From a virus (Duplodnaviria; Heunggongvirae; Uroviricota; Caudoviricetes): DNA of 44,765 nt. The stretch lies in the IMG/VR virus record IMGVR_UViG_3300020152_000001, positions 1 through 44,765 of that record, one strand, 5' to 3'. Below the pieces are notes generated by a model that worked only from the letters and a program-made list of their open reading frames with translations, was not told the DNA's origin and did not search any database. Numbering within the stretch: the first letter of the stretch is position 1; every line of letters starts with the position of its first letter. Below, piece after piece: positions 3,713 to 11,727 of the stretch. The translations under genes and the position numbers were made by a program.

Positions 3713-4513
3713 TTATTGCGCACCGAGTTTGTATTGGTGGGCGAGAGCCAGACGCTTCTCAGGAGCGAGCTTGTTGAACTGCTCCATCGTCATGCCGTTT
3801 GGCAGCGTCTTGCCGTTTCCACCGTTGTTGCCGCCGCCGTTGGCACCGCCACCGTTCGACTGCTTGAAGAAGTACGGAGCTTCTTCCTTGAGCTTGCCGA
3901 GCCATTCGAGCGGAGTCATCGCCGAGACGCCGTCTGCGCCATAGATGATGGCTTCGCCTTGCAAGGGGACGACACTGCCGTCATCCTTGACTTTGAAGAC
4001 CTTCGATGCGCGTTCCACGATGTCCGTGAGCGCACGAGCTTCGGCGCCAGACTTCGGGTCGAGCACAGCGTCGGTGATCACGCGATCAATGACCGAACGC
4101 CGATATTTGTTGTCGAACTCACCGGCGTTCTTTTCCGCCGCGACGCGCGCTTGTTCAGCAGCGAGCAGTCGTTGTTCGTAGCCCTGCTTCATCGACTCGA
4201 CACGCCGGGCGACTTCCGCCTCGATGTTGTCCGAGCCCTTGAGCTTGCCGTCCTTCACCTGCTGATCGACCGTCTTCAGACGTTCGACTTCAGTCTTGAA
4301 GCCATCGAAGTCGTCGCCGATCAGCGGCGCCAGAACATCGATCTTTTGCTTCAGACCATCACGTTCCTGGCTGATCTTCAGGTTGTTGTCGCGGAATTCG
4401 TCGAGCTTGGCCTTCGGGACCACGTTGACGACGAACTTGCCTTCAACTTCCTTCGCAGCTTCCTTGAGACCGTCCGGAATCGCTTCCATCGTGTCGAACG
4501 TAATGTCAGGCAT
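3713..4513 (-). CDS. capsid scaffolding protein
   Basis: Coiled-coil 266 aa upstream of MCP; KLDEFRDNN motif; Gly-rich tail. Confidence 0.8.
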   Translation of the reverse strand: MPDITFDTMEAIPDGLKEAAKEVEGKFVVNVVPKAKLDEFRDNNLKISQERDGLKQKIDVLAPLIGDDFDGFKTEVERLKTVDQQVKDGKLKGSDNIEAEVARRVESMKQGYEQRLLAAEQARVAAEKNAGEFDNKYRRSVIDRVITDAVLDPKSGAEARALTDIVERASKVFKVKDDGSVVPLQGEAIIYGADGVSAMTPLEWLGKLKEEAPYFFKQSNGGGANGGGNNGGNGKTLPNGMTMEQFNKLAPEKRLALAHQYKLGAQ

Positions 4514-4667
4514 TCTTACCTCCCCGAGGTATTGAGTTGGACGAGCAGACCCTGCTTGCCGCCTCCCCGACCCTCGGAGAGGACTTTATGGGTTCCGGGC
4601 CCGAGAGCCCGGAGGTGCCGGCGGATGCACCGCGCGGCGTTGATTCCCGTGTGAGGGATACTGACGA

Positions 4668-4696
4668 GAGTTAACCAAACTGACCACAAAGGTCAA
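4668..4696 (-). promoter_or_regulatory. sigma70-like promoter of the capsid operon
   Basis: TTGACC-N17-TAACTC upstream of a structured scaffold leader. Confidence 0.5.
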
Positions 4697-4717
4697 TATA
4701 GCTAACGGCTCACCGGC

Positions 4718-5035
4718 TCACTTTTTCTGTCCCGGCATCGCTTGTCCGCAGTGCGGGCACGGCGGCGGGGCGTTTTGTGCCGCGAGCTTCGCCTTCCACT
4801 CTGCGATTGCGCTGTTGCCGTGAGCCGTGACGACGTGATCCTCTTCGAAAGTCTCGGAGACGTAGTAGTCGTCACCGAGAAGCGGCTTCACGTGCCGGCG
4901 ACGAGACTTTAGGCGCCGGATCGTGATCTTAGCCGAGGCCATGTAGCCGTACATCCCGGGCTCATGGTCCTCTTCGATCGAGAGGATGGTCTCGCGAATG
5001 ACGCCGCGAGCGCGATCGGCCATGACGGCCTCCAT
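4718..5035 (-). CDS. hypothetical protein with C-terminal CxxC
   Basis: ORF with GGAGG RBS; CPHCGQ motif. Confidence 0.7.
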   Translation of the reverse strand: MEAVMADRARGVIRETILSIEEDHEPGMYGYMASAKITIRRLKSRRRHVKPLLGDDYYVSETFEEDHVVTAHGNSAIAEWKAKLAAQNAPPPCPHCGQAMPGQKK

Positions 5036-5044
5036 GTGCGAAAC

Positions 5045-5120
5045 TGGTCAGGGCGGAGAGATTCGAACTCCCGACCCCCTGTATCCAAAACAGGTGCGCT
5101 ACCAGCTGCGCTACGCCCTG
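5045..5120 (-). tRNA. tRNA-Pro(TGG)
   Basis: Full cloverleaf CAGGGCG...CGCCCTG-A-CCA; anticodon arm CCTGT-TTTGGAT-ACAGG; GTTCGAAT T-loop. Confidence 0.93.
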
Positions 5121-5134
5121 ATCTGACCTCTCGC

Positions 5135-5287
5135 TTAGTGCGAGGGTCGCGGTCGAGCGGACGCGCGAGCGCGTTGGTTTTTGCCGAAGCCCCAGCCGTT
5201 ACGCTGGGCGCGAAGAACCGTGCCCCCGTCGAAGACGACGAGAGCGGTGATAAGCAACAGCACTAGCAGCAGGCTGACGAAGTCCAT
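5135..5287 (-). CDS. small membrane protein
   Basis: ATG at 5287 with AAGGA RBS; N-terminal hydrophobic helix; basic tail. Confidence 0.6.
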   Translation of the reverse strand: MDFVSLLLVLLLITALVVFDGGTVLRAQRNGWGFGKNQRARASARPRPSH

Positions 5288-5300
5288 CGTCGTGATCCTT

Positions 5301-5378
5301 TGGTGCCGCGTGTGAGTGTCGAACTCACCCTGGACGGTTTCTGAGACCGTTGCCTCTACCAACGTGGGCTAACGCGGC
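5301..5378 (-). tRNA. tRNA-Leu(CAG) with short variable loop
   Basis: GCCGCGT...ACGCGGC-A-CCA; ACGGT-CTCAGAA-ACCGT; 5-nt variable region CCAGG. Confidence 0.88.
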
Positions 5379-5391
5379 AGAAGAGGGTCGG

Positions 5392-5469
5392 TGGTCGCGG
5401 GGGTCGGATTTGAACCGACGACCTACTGGTTATGAGCCAGCCGAGCTAACCGGACTGCTCCACCCCGCA
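5392..5469 (-). tRNA. tRNA-Met(CAT), initiator-like body
   Basis: TGCGGGG...CCCCGCG-A-CCA; A11:U24; CTCATAA loop; closely resembles bacterial tRNA-fMet. Confidence 0.9.
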
Positions 5470-5540
5470 GAAATTGGCGCTCCGAATAACGCCTCGGAAC
5501 TACGGCGACGTGGATTTTGGGCGGCACGTTCGCCCCGAAT

Positions 5541-5618
5541 TGGCAAAGGTCTAGGGAATCGAACCCTACTAGAACGGTTTTGGAGACCGACGCCTAACAC
5601 CAGCCGAGCCCGACCAAT
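5541..5618 (-). pseudogene. degenerate tRNA-Trp(CCA)
   Basis: Intact CGGT-CTCCAAA-ACCG arm, T-arm and G-CCA end; two U:U mismatches in the acceptor stem, no U8, poor D-arm. Confidence 0.65.
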
Positions 5619-5725
5619 CTCTGATCGGCATGCCGGCCGATCGAGTTAGCGGTTCACCTGCCATCGATGGGCGGGACGCGTCACTGTCTCAAACTCCAAA
5701 TCCGAAAGCCGACGCGTACTCTCGC

Positions 5726-6012
5726 AGAGGCGTCAGCCGTGTTGTCGAGATCGAGAACTGAAGCCCGTAGGGACTCGGGCTCCCTTTCGCGAGAATTCCT
5801 AATGGGGCGTCGGCCCTTCCCCGACAACGTCGCTCATCAAGGCGACGACCCCTGGTGCTGGGCGCGGGTTCACCGCTTCCCGGAAGCGGCACCTACACGT
5901 GGCAGGGCCGTCAGTATTAGAGGCCGGTACTGACCGCTCATCGCCGCTCTTCTCCGCGAACGGAGCGCATTCAAGCGTGTCGGACTTTCTCGACCTCGCT
6001 TCCCGGGCCTCT
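5726..6012 (-). ncRNA. large structured RNA with RNase-P-RNA-like P1/P2/P4 core
   Basis: Terminal stem AGAGGC/GCCTCT; 12-bp long-range helix CGAGGTCGAGAA/TTCTCGATCTCG; GAGAAAGTCCG and ACAACACGGCTGA resemble CR-I and CR-V and form a bulged P4; several internal hairpins. Confidence 0.55.
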
Positions 6013-6031
6013 CGACCCCAGAAGAAGAATT

Positions 6032-6093
6032 TGGAGCAGGGACGAGGGTTACACTCCCTCGCGAATTTCACCCGACCTCGCGGCCGGCCCCAC
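6032..6093 (-). ncRNA. miniature cloverleaf ending in CCA
   Basis: GTGGGG/CCCTGC stem with 2 GU pairs, GCGA-tetraloop arm, 4-bp stub arm, GAGGG-7nt-CCCTC arm, T-CCA. Confidence 0.45.
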
Positions 6094-6096
6094 GTA

Positions 6097-6378
6097 AATG
6101 CGCCGGGTTCTGTTGCCGGGCCCCGGCGGCCCCGCTCCGCGCCCTTAGGCCGCGCGAGCAAACTCTTGGTTGTCGTTCGCAGTTGAACGCCACCTGCCCC
6201 GCGCCTGTCGATACCTACTTCGCCCCCATCACCTACCCACCGAACACCCTCCACGGGTCCGGGGTCGTGAGGCCCCTGGCGGCCCCGAGTCACGAATGGG
6301 CCGGCCGATGAGTATGTGGTGGAGGCGGCGGGTGCCGCCCCCGCGTCCAGACACAAAGCCCTCGCTTTCGCAAGGAGC
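6097..6378 (-). ncRNA. ssrA: circularly permuted two-piece tmRNA: acceptor piece ~6378-6317, IVS 6316-6228, coding piece 6227-~6097
   Basis: ...GACGCGGGGGCGGCACCCGCCGCCTCCACCA precedes GGGGGCGAAGTAGGTATCGAC; the two form a 7-bp acceptor stem with G3.U70; tag frame 6180-6145 after CAACT reads ANDNQEFARAA-stop. Confidence 0.93.
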
Positions 6379-6381
6379 CGT

Positions 6382-6411
6382 GATGTAAGCATGCCTTACG
6401 CTTGATGTCAA
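6382..6411 (-). promoter_or_regulatory. tmRNA promoter
   Basis: TTGACA-N15-GCTTACATC, close to the Caulobacter housekeeping promoter pattern; CGTAAG in spacer. Confidence 0.75.
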
Positions 6412-6674
6412 GCGTGTTTGCGGCGCGGAATAAAACCGTCGCTGACTTTTATCGCGACGCTGCCTTTCAGCGAGTGGACCTTCGGCGCTTCTGGCGTGCC
6501 GGCCGCGACAGCAACTTCGGCGATGCCAGCGGCGTCGATCGCGCCTTCGGAGATCAGCCTTCGCGCTTCGACGATGTCGACGACGCGAACAGGCGACAGG
6601 CGGCCGTTGTCGAGACGGCGGAGTAGGCGAAAGCGCCCGGCGCGGGCGCGGCTGTGTTTGATCGTCAGACTCAT
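6408..6674 (-). CDS. hypothetical protein (88 aa)
   Basis: ATGA overlap with the thyA stop. Confidence 0.65.
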
Positions 6675-7552
6675 TTGCTCACGGGCGCTTTGATCGTTGG
6701 GTGTGGCTGGTAGCCTACGAGGTTGAAGTCTTCGAAGACGAAGTCGTCGATGTCCTGGCGTGTTGGGTTGATGATCATCTCCGGCGCCTTGCGAGTTTCG
6801 TCCCAGCGGCTGAGTTGAAGTCGCGCCTGATCGAGGTGGTTCTCGTACAGATGGCAATCGCCGATCGTATGGACGAACTCTCCGGGCTCAAGGTGGCAAA
6901 TCTGTGCGATCATCATCGTCAGCAGCGCGTAGCTCGCGATGTTGAACGGAACGCCTAGGAAGAAGTCACCGCTGCGCTGATACAGATGGCAGTTCAGCTT
7001 GCCTTCCTGAACGTAGAATTGGAAGAGCACGTGGCACGGCGGCAGCGCGACATCGGCGAGATCGTCGGGGTTCCAGGCCGTGACTATGTGCCGGCGGCCG
7101 TGTGGGTCCTTCTTGATGCCGTTGATCACGCGCCAGAGCTGGTCGATGCTCTGCTGTCCCCAACAACGCCACTGCTCTCCGTAAACGGGTCCGAGGTCGC
7201 CGTTCTCGTCTGCCCACTCATCCCAGATCGTGACGCCGGCTTCTTGCAGGCTGCGGACATTGGTCTCGCCGCGAATGAACCAGAGGAGTTCGTGGATGAC
7301 GGACTTCAGATGCACACGCTTCGTCGTCAGCAGCGGAAAGCCTTTGTCGAGATCGAAGCGCATCTGCGGCGCGAAGATCGAGATCGTCGGGCCGTTGCGG
7401 GTCTCGGCGCGGACGCCGCGCTCCAAGATCAATTCCAAGACGCGGAGATACTCGTCGTCGAAGACGTTGGTGCAAGGAGATGGGATCGAACCACCGACCA
7501 CAGCATTATCGGTGCTGTGCTCTACCGCTGAGCTATCCTTGCTCGAAATCAT
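6671..7552 (-). CDS. thyA: thymidylate synthase
   Basis: [43 protein letters not shown] motifs; start uncertain because a tRNA overlaps the 5' end. Confidence 0.95.
7468..7542 (-). tRNA. tRNA-Ile(GAT) nested in the thyA frame, with C33
   Basis: GCAAGGA...TCCTTGC-A-CCA; GCTC/GAGC D-stem; CAGCA-CCGATAA-TGCTG; GGTGG-TTCGATC-CCATC. Confidence 0.9.
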
Positions 7553-7582
7553 ATTTGCTCTGTGTCTTTCTACCGGAGAAAT

Positions 7583-7768
7583 TCAAGCCGCTCCGTGGCG
7601 GACGCGAACTCTCAGAGGTCCAAAGCACCAGAAGGATTCCTTGAGGTGCCGGCGTGGGAATTCCCAGGCCCAGTCTTTCCAAGAGGCGAACAGAGCGTGC
7701 TCTTCGCCCTTCCAATTCCAATAGAGCCAGTAGTTGGCTCCTCGTCGCGGGAACGTGAACCGTTTCAT
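7583..7768 (-). CDS. Trp-rich hypothetical protein
   Basis: ATGA overlap with the upstream gene. Confidence 0.65.
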   Translation of the reverse strand: MKRFTFPRRGANYWLYWNWKGEEHALFASWKDWAWEFPRRHLKESFWCFGPLRVRVRHGAA

Positions 7769-7968
7769 TTGTGCTCGACGATGCGAACGCGATGACTGCC
7801 GCCGAAGCGACGATCAGCGAACGCTTCCGCTTCTGCCTTGCTGTTGAATTTCTTCGCTGCGGGTTTGATCGTCGTCCAACCGTAATGCGCGAAGAAGCCG
7901 ATCTTCATCTCGCAGTAGAAGAGAGTGCCGGCCAGACGCACGCGATGTTCGATCAGCCAGCAGGACAT
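7765..7968 (-). CDS. hypothetical protein
   Basis: ATG at 7968 with GAGGAAG RBS. Confidence 0.7.
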   Translation of the reverse strand: MSCWLIEHRVRLAGTLFYCEMKIGFFAHYGWTTIKPAAKKFNSKAEAEAFADRRFGGSHRVRIVEHK

Positions 7969-7969
7969 C

Positions 7970-8497
7970 TCACTTCCTCTTCGAGCGCACCCGCCATTTG
8001 TCGAGTGGGAGTTTGGTGTCGACGTAATTGATGCCATCGCCACATCCGCTGCTGTGCTTGATGGCAGCGCGGACGGCTTTAATGGCTCCGGAGTCCTTGT
8101 GTGCAAACATGCAGCCGAGCGCGACTGAAGCTCCGGCTCCGCGTGCGAAGTATTCGGGAATCTTCGCACCTCGGTACACGAGCAGCGAGCTGTTGTTTTT
8201 CGAGACCGACGTGAAGTCGATCAGCATCCGCTTCTTGCGGCTGTCTTTCGGTACGGCGACGATGAGAAGTGTTAGGTCGCCGGGATAACTTGGCCGAGCG
8301 CCCGTTTCCACGATCTCTTTCGCCATGGCGACACAGTTGTCGTCGCTGTCGGCGTTGCCGGCCATGCCGACTACGCACTTGTAGTCCTTGGTGCTGAAGA
8401 TCGACAGCTTCGACATCGCCCCCATGGGCATGTCTTCGTCGAAATTGACCCGACGATCAGCAGCAATGACGCCGTCGCGATAGACGAGAACAGTCAC
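7970..8497 (-). CDS. HslV/proteasome-beta-like Ntn hydrolase
   Basis: M-T start, YRDGVIAAD, VVGMAGN and ARGAGASVALG motifs. Confidence 0.7.
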   Translation of the reverse strand: MTVLVYRDGVIAADRRVNFDEDMPMGAMSKLSIFSTKDYKCVVGMAGNADSDDNCVAMAKEIVETGARPSYPGDLTLLIVAVPKDSRKKRMLIDFTSVSKNNSSLLVYRGAKIPEYFARGAGASVALGCMFAHKDSGAIKAVRAAIKHSSGCGDGINYVDTKLPLDKWRVRSKRK

Positions 8498-8514
8498 AGA
8501 GGACCCTTCAGCTC

Positions 8515-8547
8515 AAAAGAAACTGTGGGCTTGCCGTAGAGTCCCAC
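8515..8547 (-). terminator. hairpin plus U-rich tract at the 3' end of the large RNA
   Basis: GTGGG-N13-CCCAC then AGTTTCTTTT. Confidence 0.5.
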
Positions 8548-8935
8548 TACTCCCCCGTGCCCGAAGGCGGCTCATCCGCGTGGCCACGCGAACTCACATG
8601 AGGAACGACGCTATCGGAGTCGCGTCGCGGCATGCTGGGTACTTTCGGCCGCCGGGACCGCCCCGACCTCATGCCTGTTTCACCTTCCCCAGCACTTGCA
8701 GAATTTTGCCGATGACGGTGTCCCCGCCTTCCCTGCTGCCCGGCGACAGCTCTCTCCCTCACACGCGCTACCCGTGCGCTTAGCCAGCTCCACACGGGGC
8801 GGGGAGACGCTGAGACCCGGCCCCCGAGCACTGGCCGCCCAGACAGGGAAAACTCGGTTTCCAATCATCGCCGCCGGTGTCCCCGGAGAACGGCACGATC
8901 GGCACAGCGGTACACTTCAGTCTCGCTTCGGCGAT
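8515..8935 (-). ncRNA. ~420-nt multi-pseudoknot RNA (GOLLD-like candidate)
   Basis: No credible ORF; three crossing helix pairs; many hairpins; TTGACT-N16-TACGTC promoter at 8940-8967; 3' hairpin plus U tract. Confidence 0.65.
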
Positions 8936-8974
8936 CGGCGACGTACCGGCCTCATGCGGGGAGTCAAAATCAAA

Positions 8975-9042
8975 CGCAGCAGGCGGGTGCGTCCCGCGTA
9001 TCCCTCAGGCGTTGAGGGCGTCCTAGCCTAGACGACCGCCGC
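8975..9042 (-). ncRNA. tRNA-like cloverleaf with intact stems, non-canonical loops and no CCA
   Basis: GCGGCGG/CTGCTGC, GTC/GAC D-arm, CCCTC-AACGCCT-GAGGG, GCGGG-ACGCA-CCCGC. Confidence 0.55.
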
Positions 9043-9046
9043 GAAA

Positions 9047-9117
9047 TGCTGCCCGGGACGTTCCGCTATGGCGCGGATTTAAGCTCGACGGCCTTGTGTC
9101 GAGCACTCCCGGGACTG
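9047..9117 (-). ncRNA. three-way-junction small RNA element
   Basis: CCCGGGA/TCCCGGG encloses GCTCGAC/GTCGAGC and TCCGC/GCGGA hairpins. Confidence 0.4.
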
Positions 9118-9192
9118 CAAACAATCAAGACTTGCGCTTCTGCTTCATCGACTCGCGCTTTCGCCCACGCTGACCGGGGCCGCCTTGACCTT

Positions 9193-9280
9193 TGGTGCCG
9201 AGAGAAGGAGTCGAGCCTTCGGGGCTCCGAAGAGCAACGCGTTTACAGCGCGCTCCCGCCCCCTACGGGTCTACCTCGGC
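9193..9280 (-). tRNA. tRNA-Tyr(GTA)
   Basis: GCCGAG/CTCGGC stem, A-CCA end; GCGCG-CTGTAAA-CGCGT; long variable arm with UUCG; C54 in T-loop. Confidence 0.87.
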
Positions 9281-9294
9281 AATATCTGGCTCTC

Positions 9295-9438
9295 AGCAGG
9301 TAGGGTATGTCGCCGAGACTTTCGCTCCGACGCCTTCAAACCGCCCCGCCGGAGACCTGACTAAACTCATCCGGACCCGCCCCACGTGCGGCCACTTACG
9401 CCACCGCCGTGATCTCTCCGGTTAAGACCCCCCACCTG
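9295..9438 (-). ncRNA. ~140-nt structured RNA element
   Basis: 10-bp closing helix GCAGGTGGGG/CCCTACCTGC; CCGGAGA/TCTCCGG; GAAA-tetraloop hairpin. Confidence 0.45.
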
Positions 9439-9443
9439 CTTTT

Positions 9444-9499
9444 TGGTGGAGGAAGGCCGCTCTTGGCTCGACAGCGGGTCCGCGCCGTCGACTTCCGCC
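9444..9499 (-). ncRNA. miniature tRNA-like element ending in ACCA
   Basis: GGCGGAAG/CTTCCTCC-A-CCA with one mismatch, enclosing TCGACGGC/GCTGTCGA and GCC/GGC hairpins. Confidence 0.5.
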
Positions 9500-9618
9500 C
9501 TGCCATTGCCGCCCCGGCAGGGACCTGTAACTCATGGTGAGCAGGACCTAGAAGCTCGCCTGGGATTTCGTTCCCCGGGGTTAGAAACGCGGAAAATCTT
9601 CCCCGTTCTCCGTAGTCC

Positions 9619-9661
9619 TGGTGCCGCGTTGACACCCACCTAAAGGCCGGCGTTACCCGGC
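9619..9661 (-). ncRNA. minihelix-like element ending in ACCA
   Basis: GCCGGGT/ACGCGGC-A-CCA with one mismatch, enclosing one hairpin; 3' end identical to that of tRNA-Leu (ACGCGGCACCA). Confidence 0.4.
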
Positions 9662-9756
9662 GAATTCATCGTCGCCTCCCTTGGTCGAGTATCGACAGCG
9701 GGGGTCTTACGCGTTCGTCACGCCGCCCCCGTCTATTCGGTAGCTCAGAGTAAGGG

Positions 9757-9785
9757 AGGATTGCACACGTCAGCGAGACTGTCAA
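9757..9785 (-). promoter_or_regulatory. putative promoter of the ncRNA array
   Basis: GCTTGACA at 9780-9787 upstream of the CCTCCCTT/AAGGGAGG-closed hairpin; -10 weak. Confidence 0.45.
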
Positions 9786-9793
9786 GCAGGATT

Positions 9794-9997
9794 TTAGGCT
9801 TCGAGCTGGCGTTCGCAGAAGGCCGCGTAGACGTTGGGTCGATTGGCCCCGGAGCCTTCATGGTTCTCGGCCGAGGTCGCCGCCGCTCGCATGCACTCAG
9901 TCAGCGTGCGGTATTCGCCAACGGGGACCGTAGTCGTTGTGTCCCAGAGCCCGAAGAGCTTCAAGTGGATGACGACGACCAGGACCCAGACTTCCAT
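9794..9997 (-). CDS. small protein with hydrophobic N-terminus and two Cys
   Basis: TAATG overlap with the portal stop. Confidence 0.65.
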   Translation of the reverse strand: MEVWVLVVVIHLKLFGLWDTTTTVPVGEYRTLTECMRAAATSAENHEGSGANRPNVYAAFCERQLEA

Positions 9998-11727
9998 TAT
10001 CTGCGGCCTCCGCCGCCGCCGGCCGGTCGTTGGCCACCGCCCTGGCGCTGCTGCTGCGCCGCTCGAAGCGCGTTGGCTTGTGGCGGCGGCCGTAGTTTGG
10101 CCTCGCGTTCGCGGGCCTTGCGTTCGGCTTCGGCTTGCTCGCTCTCGTGTTCGCGAGTTGCGGCTCCCTCTTCGCTCTCGTGTTCGCGATCGAGCGCGTT
10201 CTCGCCGCGATCGAGATCGGCGTTCTCGTCGTCGATCTCCGACTGCCGGTTCGGGTAGCCGCGCTGGCGGGCTTCGGCGTCCGGCTGCATCGGGAACGAG
10301 TTCGTGCTCGTGAGCAGCTTCTTGAGTTCTTCGATCGACAGCCAGTCGGGGATGACTTCGGCGCGACGCAGGTAGTCGTGAACGACTTCGATCGGCAGGA
10401 TGCCATCGGTATACATCGCGTGGATGGCGCGGAACTCGCGAGCGCTGATGTTGTCGAACAGGAAGTCTTTGTTGCTTTCGACCAGAGCCTTCTCGGCTTC
10501 GGCCGCCGGCACGTCTTGCCAGACCAGCCACCACTGCAGCAGCTGCGTGAAGCCGGTGTCCAGCGTGCTCGACACATTCAACAGCGTCGACTGTTCGTTG
10601 CGCTCTTTGGTCTTGGCGACGTTGTCGCTCTCGGCCGTCGAGCCGCTGCGAAAACCCAGAAGCCGACCGCCGAGGCTCGACACCTGTTGTTCTTTTTGAT
10701 CGAGAGCGGACTCAAGAAACTTGAGACCATGGCCGTTGAATTCAATGACGCCGGGCTTTTCGTTTGGCCCGACTTCCCAGACCGTCGACGGGCCCAGGTG
10801 GTATTCGCTCTTGTCGCTGGCTCCGTTCACCTGCACGTAGTAGATCGGGAGCCCGGTGAAGAAGCGCCCGTGCTCCAGGTGAGCGTAGCTGCGATAGTGG
10901 CTGAGGTTCAGCGTCGCGATGTCATACACCGGCGACTTCTCGACATCGGGGCCGTTGGTGTACGGGCCGAAGAAGACGAAGGGGATGTAGGAGAATGGGA
11001 CGCCGCGATTTTTCGGCGTGAAGACGTTGGACGGGGCGGCGTCGATCGACGCATCCGCGCCTTCGTTCTCGTAGACCTCTTGCACGTAGGCCCAACCGTT
11101 CGAGGTCTCGGACGACTCCACGAGCTTGCAGATGCGATACGTGGTGAAATACTGGCGGCTCTGTCCTTGAGACGCGCGGCTGATCTTGATCTCGCGGAGA
11201 ACGATTTTCGAGAGCACGCAGCGGCCGTCGATGTCCATCGTCTCCCAGTCGACGATGTTCTCGGAGATGTAGGAGCAGAGATACGGCGGCGCGCTGCCGT
11301 TCGCATCCATGTCGAGGAGAACGCCGACACGGCCCATGTGGATGATTTCTTGGGCCACGAGCTTGACGACGAGTTCAAGGCTCTCGTTGCTCTTGCCGAT
11401 CTTCTTCAGTCCCTTCTCCAGGCGCTGAGGAACGCCGGTGAACTTCGCCGGCCGGCGGAAGAGCGTGCCAATCATTCCCGACACAGTGCGACCGACCATG
11501 TTGTAGAACACGGCGCGATCGAGATAGGCCTGATACTCGTCGGTGTCCTGGGTCTCCAGGCGCGGGAGGTAGATGACGCCCTTCCGCTTGACCTCGACTT
11601 CGCCGAGGAAGGTGTCGCGCAACAACGACCACTCCGGCGCCCAATAGGCGTAGTCCGGGTGGGCGAACTCCGGGCCCATGGTCAGAGCCGCGAGAGCGCG
11701 ATTATTTTGCGGGTTCTTTTTGGCCAC
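9997..11727 (-). CDS. portal protein (DUF4055-type)
   Basis: 576 aa; YLPRL..Y..Y..RA.FYN..RT..G, GRVGVLLD, N..HY...A motifs. Confidence 0.9.
   Translation of the reverse strand: MAKKNPQNNRALAALTMGPEFAHPDYAYWAPEWSLLRDTFLGEVEVKRKGVIYLPRLETQDTDEYQAYLDRAVFYNMVGRTVSGMIGTLFRRPAKFTGVPQRLEKGLKKIGKSNESLELVVKLVAQEIIHMGRVGVLLDMDANGSAPPYLCSYISENIVDWETMDIDGRCVLSKIVLREIKISRASQGQSRQYFTTYRICKLVESSETSNGWAYVQEVYENEGADASIDAAPSNVFTPKNRGVPFSYIPFVFFGPYTNGPDVEKSPVYDIATLNLSHYRSYAHLEHGRFFTGLPIYYVQVNGASDKSEYHLGPSTVWEVGPNEKPGVIEFNGHGLKFLESALDQKEQQVSSLGGRLLGFRSGSTAESDNVAKTKERNEQSTLLNVSSTLDTGFTQLLQWWLVWQDVPAAEAEKALVESNKDFLFDNISAREFRAIHAMYTDGILPIEVVHDYLRRAEVIPDWLSIEELKKLLTSTNSFPMQPDAEARQRGYPNRQSEIDDENADLDRGENALDREHESEEGAATREHESEQAEAERKAREREAKLRPPPQANALRAAQQQRQGGGQRPAGGGGGRR

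Follow-up and report, generated by a model that had tools for sequence, protein, structure and literature searches.

The stretch of DNA analysed here (the window, 44,765 nucleotides) corresponds to bases 1-44765 of a 132,731-bp IMG/VR virus record, the ends of which are direct terminal repeats. Its portal region is like that of large siphoviruses of Alphaproteobacteria, namely the Erythrobacter, Ruegeria, Sphingobium and Caulobacter phiCbK-like phages. Next to the portal gene lies an island of co-oriented RNA genes (Table 1), within which a sequence-only reading had proposed one ornate RNA of ~420 nt at 8515-8967, equipped with three pseudoknots, its own promoter and a terminator, and likened to the GOLLD RNAs. 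This flagged interval is held in the 695-nt gap between ORF175 and tRNA-Tyr, its upstream neighbour in the shared direction of transcription. Beyond ORF175, the minus-strand order is tRNA-Ile, thyA and tmRNA, then tRNA-Met, tRNA-Leu and tRNA-Pro, so that tRNAs and tmRNA surround the interval on both sides and on the same strand; its placement in a phage RNA island, the setting also described for GOLLD, is thereby borne out.

Relatives of this phage are few. A blastn search with 8450-9200 found no match among 50,697 GenBank phages, while a portal search of viral and metagenome contigs retrieved two relatives, L002 (=L007) and L003 (=L006), with portal proteins 62-64% identical to that of the window, plus the fragment L004 (=L008). 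The alignment of L002 and L003 with the window at first looked empty beyond tRNA-Tyr; two 9-mers, GAAACCGAG and GGCCGGGTC, occur, however, at matching spacing in all three. Scanning for this pattern gave 49 viral matches, about the estimated chance number, from which an HMM filter left only L026 as new and real. L026 is the closest relative, its portal being 79% identical in protein and its tmRNA tag and tRNA order being shared with the window.

Table 1. Features of the RNA island and its surroundings, in window coordinates
Feature	Position	Strand	Basis or remark
Portal gene (DUF4055)	11727-9997	-	Pfam
Atu_At1 match (Rhizobiales sRNA family)	9644-9536	-	Rfam, 69.1 bits, full-length; gathering score 60
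tRNA-Tyr(GTA)	9193..9280	-	ARAGORN; aligned with tRNA-Tyr of L002, L003 and L026
Unconstrained spacer after tRNA-Tyr	9117..9192	-	36% identical to L026 (over 9192-9103); alifold z = +0.34
Three-way-junction domain	9050..9116	-	GUCCCGGG/CCCGGGC stem closing two hairpins
Degenerate tRNA-like cloverleaf	8975..9043	-	MFE and alifold; ~97% identical to L026 7132-7200
Linker, cloverleaf to core	8926..8974	-	80% identical to L026; contains TTGACT at 8967
Structured core RNA module	8696..8932	-	Four distinct copies (window, L026, L002, L003); alifold
H1	8909-8905/8812-8808	-	Paired in 4/4, three different sequences
Invariant 9-mers	GAAACCGAG from 8861; GGCCGGGTC 8822-8814	-	On either side of a variable hairpin
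H4	8807-8802/8758-8753	-	U-A to C-G in L003
H7 hairpin	8750-8735	-	Compensatory changes
H8 hairpin	8728-8714	-	Followed by U-rich tail
Non-conserved ORF175 leader	8498..8699	-	Site of pseudoknots 2 and 3 and of the 'terminator-like' hairpin
ORF175	7970..8497	-	Orphan 175-aa gene; codon-position GC 0.56/0.44/0.73; cassette with leader
Permuted tmRNA	6369-6145	-	

Further searches for the two conserved elements of the gap, a core module and a tRNA-like cloverleaf, added no copies. A tighter 9-mer pattern turned up no new copy among viral contigs, and its 120 matches in prokaryote genome contigs were due to chance; a pattern for the cloverleaf D-arm had L026 as its sole match. These scans of viral and genome contigs relied on exact patterns. 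Among 60 more distant loci from the portal alignment, none carries the core, and the cloverleaf domain is matched there only at the level of tRNA likeness. Ten whole related virus records searched with model R1 contain no further copy, and the phage's own genome has a single copy of the core and no second. Our comparison of the core consequently covers four distinct sequences (window, L026, L002 and L003) from about three lineages.

Several other features of the island are worth recording. TTGACA boxes at 9785 and 6411 (minus strand) are kept in L026 (8679 and 6589); the former precedes the sRNA-like element and tRNA-Tyr, the latter precedes the tmRNA and has a conserved CTTACA ~16 nt downstream, and on these sequence features both boxes are likely real promoters of the island. 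The Atu_At1 match lies within the island, downstream of the conserved box at 9785. At 5548-5615 (minus strand), where relatives have tRNA-Trp directly after the tmRNA, the tRNA-Sec model gives a score of 28 bits in the window while ARAGORN makes no call, and this segment may be a missed or decayed tRNA. Lastly, the longest thyA frame (6671-7552, minus strand) passes through tRNA-Ile (7542-7468), but its Pfam match begins at residue 34, so the true start is probably downstream of the tRNA.

Composition of the flagged interval

The flagged interval is non-coding, as had been proposed. GC content by codon position is flat over 8500-9700, in contrast to the strong periodicity (0.4/0.8) in portal, thyA and ORF175, and 1-nt and 5-nt indels relative to L026 break the frame within the core. 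Two internal ORFs, an Arg-rich minus frame of 105 aa and a plus frame of 111 aa, were rejected as genes, having neither a Pfam match nor codon periodicity and resembling noise in GC-rich sequence.

All ten helix strings on which the sequence-only reading was built are present on the minus strand where it placed them, and its four 7-bp helices do cross. As evidence for pseudoknots, however, they are weak and not clearly above chance. The 453 nt contain 13 perfect helices of at least 7 bp, a number attained by 17 of 500 dinucleotide shuffles, which average 7.4 +/- 2.6. Crossing helix pairs number 24, compared with 8.1 +/- 6.6 (17 of 500 shuffles reach that count); a typical shuffle thus already shows ~8 'pseudoknots', and crossing 7-mers are what one expects of sequence this rich in GC. 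Several helix arms also have competing partners: GCGGGGA pairs with TCCCCGC at either 8962 or 8805, and CCTCATG with CATGAGG at either 8956 or 8673. The loop contact of pseudoknot 3 is 5 bp long, and that single 5-mer alone has a 17% chance of occurring. As a whole, 8515-8967 folds no better than its shuffles, the MFE z-scores of the minus and plus strands being -0.34 and -0.12, respectively.

Comparison with the relatives also bears on the pseudoknots. In pseudoknot 1, the helix TTCCCTG/CAGGGAA carries a mismatch in L026 that no second change compensates, and neither L002 nor L003 has it paired; the other helix, TCCCCGC/GCGGGGA, is broken in all three. Pseudoknots 2 and 3 sit in sequence unique to this phage, in a region that folds worse than shuffles.

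The alignment with L026 also redraws the boundaries. It spans the gap from tRNA-Tyr to 8700 and then stops, with identities of 36% over 9192-9103, 88% over 9102-8975 and 80% over 8974-8926, followed by a patchy core (8925-8700) in which blocks of 37-90% identity alternate. Past this point, window positions 8700-7981, that is, leader and ORF175, are replaced in L026 by 400 nt carrying an unrelated 128-aa gene, after which homology resumes. Since homology ends at 8700, the segment 8700-8515 is part of a cassette found in this phage alone, and, judged by the alignment, the flagged interval joins two unrelated pieces. The proposed limits of 8515 and 8967 are therefore unsupported at both ends, the best-conserved part of the gap lying upstream of 8967, and the notion of a single ~420-nt molecule is unsupported as well.

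Nor do the proposed transcription signals find support. A consensus scan of 7400-10000 found no sigma-70-type promoter, for which -35 and -10 hexamers at 16-18 nt spacing are expected; the would-be -35 box TTGACT at 8967 reads ACGACT in L026, and its -10 element would be TACGTC. The terminator-like end (~8515-8545) went uncalled in a minus-strand terminator scan of the same region, and consists of a 5-bp hairpin with a 13-nt loop just before the ORF175 start, in place of the GC-rich stem, 3-8 nt loop and direct U-run of an intrinsic terminator.

The cassette itself is an orphan. Its leader has no homolog in L026 or in the other fetched loci (~240), and 8498-8700 folds worse than shuffles (MFE z = +0.82). 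ORF175 has no Pfam match, finds only itself among 5.8 billion proteins and has no loci in viral contigs; one other contig carries it, with identical DNA. A weak tblastn match of ORF175 lies in contig L060 (22% identity, E = 0.001), and its N-terminus (VTVLVYRDGVIAAD) is reminiscent of Ntn-hydrolase or HslV-type proteases.

A cloverleaf and a conserved core upstream of position 8700

The best-conserved part of the whole 695-nt gap is the block formed by the three-way domain and the cloverleaf (9116-8975), just outside the flagged interval. It is 88-97% identical to L026 7060-7207 (88% for the two domains together), which exceeds the conservation of the portal gene at the DNA level, and alifold gives z = -4.2 for 9117-8965. 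In the three-way domain, compensatory changes relative to L026 occur in the closing stem and in one hairpin. The cloverleaf has four arms, MFE and alifold agreeing on an 8-bp acceptor-like stem with three hairpins, of which the D-arm is of the tRNA-Glu type. The remaining arms depart from those of a decoding tRNA: the anticodon-arm position has a 6-bp stem with a 5-nt loop, ACGCC, instead of a 7-nt loop with U33, and the T-like arm a 5-nt loop, ACGCA, instead of a 7-nt T-loop. The pair flanking the ACGCC loop covaries from A-U to U-A in L026 (one compensatory change), and the stem is followed by UUUGAUU, with no CCA. Neither ARAGORN nor the Rfam tRNA model at E <= 10 recognizes this element. 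Its D-arm and T-stem nevertheless align with genuine atypical tRNAs of the distant relative L114, which a model of the cloverleaf picks up, and this shows the element to be of tRNA ancestry. These are two tandem tRNAs at L114 932-1076 (minus strand), scoring 37 and 34 bits with Rfam and receiving no ARAGORN call; their D-arms are like that of the window cloverleaf, and one has a shortened anticodon arm.

What lies next to the core differs among the four contigs, while its place in the array does not: a tRNA or tRNA-like element always precedes it, and a U-run always follows. In L002 and L003, the CCA of tRNA-Asn leads straight into the core, which ends in a U-run with a TTGACA box immediately behind it; a 3′ external transcribed spacer is laid out in this way. 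The window and L026 have no tRNA-Asn there and carry the cloverleaf instead, 50 nt upstream of the core; the intervening linker, which has no equivalent in L002 and L003, makes the 5′ end of the core uncertain. The U-run of the window is a degenerate one (AAAAUUCU), and the scan calls no terminator there. Downstream of the core lies ORF175 in the window, the unrelated 128-aa ORF in L026, or a promoter and then tRNA-Phe. Such differing genes on its 3′ side argue against a gene-specific leader, and for the same reason a riboswitch or leader reading of the core was rejected.

The core, ~230 nt long and common to the four phage contigs only, folds with RNAalifold into a fully nested structure. H1 keeps its 5 bp as CGCTG/CAGCG, TCCCA/TGGGG or CCTGA/TCAGG, and the hairpin between the two 9-mers varies in sequence while its pairing is kept. 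In the consensus, 88% of cells are paired, compared with 41-50% when partners are slid, and 20 pairs have changed on both sides, although these slid-partner controls are biased, as the consensus structure came from the same alignment as the pair counts. The alifold z-score is -3.09 on the minus strand (none of 100 column shuffles is as good) and -2.26 on the plus strand; this poorer plus-strand score, together with 22 G-U cells against no A-C cells among the pairs, points to a minus-sense RNA. The single-sequence MFE of the core reaches only z = -1.82, and in the window/L026 pair an alternative long-range helix (8964-8953 with ~8765-8752) competes with H4. The idea of an unclassed structured RNA is thus supported for about half of the flagged interval, which has a conserved fold and belongs to no described family; the conserved module has about half the size that had been proposed and is displaced upstream. 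On the strength of the alignment, the core is a candidate new small RNA family.

The core is not the only structured spacer in this clade. The spacer of ~350 nt that separates tRNA-Tyr from tRNA-Asn in the two relatives L002 (8436-8784) and L003 (8376-8749), which cannot be aligned to the window, has an alifold z of -6.0. Of its 94 pairs, 23 have changed on both sides, and it may be a better candidate for an 'ornate RNA' than the flagged interval. Because other island spacers in the relatives are so strongly structured, the core may be one of several structured precursor spacers and not a discrete functional RNA.

Kinship and origin of the core

At gathering scores, Rfam 15 gives no family match in 8498-9192 when the whole window is searched, and at E <= 10 with lax filters, applied to 4500-10500 and to 8650-9200 (551 nt), nothing is found in the gap. 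The GOLLD model, which represents the conserved 3′ domain of that RNA, and the ROOL model are likewise unmatched at E <= 10. ROOL RNAs are roughly 580 nt in size; they resemble the core in occurring in phages (and prophages), frequently close to tRNA islands, but the core is much smaller, matches no model and offers no evidence for multiple conserved pseudoknots, as pseudoknot 1 is not kept, the core consensus is fully nested and pseudoknots 2 and 3 fall where sequence is not conserved. With GOLLD, the flagged RNA has in common that it is phage-encoded, non-coding and situated beside tRNA genes, and some GOLLD members even carry a tRNA in a linker region (doi 10.1101/2024.12.08.627333). Many GOLLD members, however, exceed 800 nt, whereas the conserved unit here spans at most 9116-8696 (~420 nt with the cloverleaf domain; core ~230 nt), has no supported pseudoknots and occurs in four contigs only. 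Models of both families are present in Rfam, given that it was the source of the GOLLD and ROOL profiles used in a cryo-EM study (doi 10.1101/2024.12.08.627333). The flagged RNA is therefore not GOLLD or ROOL: the context alone fits, and the model match and the size do not.

Our preferred reading, to which we give slightly better than an even chance, is that the core is a spacer RNA of the tRNA operon, released by tRNA processing, and that the 3′ part is the separate leader of an orphan gene. The 5′ part of the flagged interval (~8974 to 8700), a conserved, folded, non-coding module of the phage tRNA operon, would be transcribed most likely from the conserved promoter-like box at 9785, within one precursor made up of the sRNA-like element, tRNA-Tyr, the three-way domain, the tRNA-like cloverleaf, the linker and the core. 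Processing of the tRNA kind, by RNase P, RNase Z or RNase E, would most likely fix the 5′ end of the core at the preceding element, a true tRNA-Asn in L002 and L003 and the degenerate, strongly conserved cloverleaf in the window and L026, and its 3′ end would be formed by a small hairpin and then the U-rich tract near 8700. The predicted product is a stable, spacer-derived RNA of ~210-270 nt, with the two invariant 9-mers as its likely recognition surface, while 8699-8515 would be the leader of an orphan cassette inserted behind the RNA and no part of it. A more far-reaching version, possible though on balance unlikely, holds that cloverleaf, linker and core (~9116 to 8700) together make up a new tRNA-linked RNA family, in which the former tRNA would serve only as a processing handle releasing a multi-helix RNA of ~230-270 nt. 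Through its 9-mers, this RNA would bind a factor of host or phage origin, such as one taking part in tRNA metabolism or translation, while an alphaproteobacterial host is being infected.

Whether the core has a product of its own is where the chief rival departs. In that account, the core is a purely cis-acting precursor spacer, the folds of which only organize and protect the long tRNA/tmRNA precursor: they would direct the cuts of RNase P, E or Z, keep exonucleases out and assist termination. The spacer would be degraded after processing, leaving no separate RNA and no function in trans. All the inter-tRNA spacers examined in the clade are structured, the Tyr-Asn spacer of L002 and L003 even more so than the core, which favours a precursor spacer; the core also stands at the 3′ end of the transcription unit in those two contigs, with its U-run and the TTGACA box that follows, and no Rfam family matches it. 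The 9-mers, however, are invariant across phages with portals only 64% identical, which exceeds what helix maintenance needs, and the core was kept even though its upstream neighbour switched from tRNA-Asn to the cloverleaf and its downstream neighbour changed three times. The invariance and this persistence favour a job of its own for the core, and we regard the purely cis-acting account as rather unlikely. The same invariance can be turned to a different use, because invariant 9-mers carry no covariation information: they could be protein-binding sites in DNA, for instance for a regulator, replication or packaging, with helices that arose incidentally in GC-rich sequence, or have been conserved by chance. 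The reverse strand is compatible with this, as its z of -2.26 is also low, and RNAalifold can over-fit with four sequences, but compensatory changes in H1, H4 and H7, the G-U cells with no A-C counterparts, which point to a single-stranded minus-sense molecule, and the location of the core, immediately behind a tRNA 3′ end among RNA genes of one orientation, all fit an RNA, making a DNA-level explanation improbable.

The original picture of one ~420-nt ornate RNA (8967-8515) akin to GOLLD or ROOL, with its own promoter, terminator and three pseudoknots, is largely refuted and, in our estimate, highly improbable. The helix strings exist, perfect helices are mildly enriched, and the context fits in that GOLLD and ROOL, RNAs of phages and prophages, often lie near tRNA islands (doi 10.1101/2024.12.08.627333). 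Against this stand the missing Rfam matches and the unremarkable folding energy, the breakage of the pseudoknot 1 helices in three relatives without compensation, a 3′ segment (8700-8515) absent from every relative and folding worse than shuffles, a promoter neither conserved nor called, a terminator not called, and a size far below that of GOLLD.

If the core is indeed released as a spacer RNA, its nearest known kinds would appear, by analogy, to be the T4 RNAs RNAC and RNAD and bacterial sRNAs of the 3′ETS type. Among the latter, 3′ETS-leuZ was reportedly described by Lalaouna and colleagues in 2015 as an sRNA from the 3′ external transcribed spacer of a bacterial tRNA operon. It extends from the end of the last tRNA to the terminator of the operon, measures ~50 nt and acts with Hfq as an sRNA sponge; this layout is exactly that of the core in L002 and L003, although the core is ~4 times longer and multi-helical. 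RNAC and RNAD (species 1 and 2 RNAs) have their genes within the tRNA cluster of T4 and arise, by maturation, from precursors that also give rise to the tRNAs, which makes them the closest analogue of the core by genomic setting and proposed biogenesis, with the differences that the T4 RNAs are ~120-140 nt long and that the hosts are unrelated. As for the cloverleaf, tRNA-like processing signals of the MALAT1/mascRNA type and mitochondrial tRNA punctuation are known from eukaryotic or organellar systems. A non-decoding cloverleaf that remained a substrate for RNase P or RNase Z, and in this way set the ends of a neighbouring RNA, would be their counterpart in a phage, where the cleavage is putative.

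The practical value of the core family is limited for now, as its members come from four uncultured contigs. Its biological interest lies in the company it keeps: phage tRNA islands hide non-tRNA RNAs with unsolved roles, GOLLD and ROOL as well as RNAC and RNAD, the latter two being small stable phage RNAs that are detectable by northern blotting and the function of which is still unknown (PMC9697503). To these, the core would contribute a compact RNA of small size, carried by large siphoviruses of Alphaproteobacteria, with a simple and testable layout of a tRNA or tRNA-like handle, a structured RNA and a U-run. Should the cloverleaf be kept only as a processing signal, it would represent a case of tRNA punctuation in a bacterial virus.
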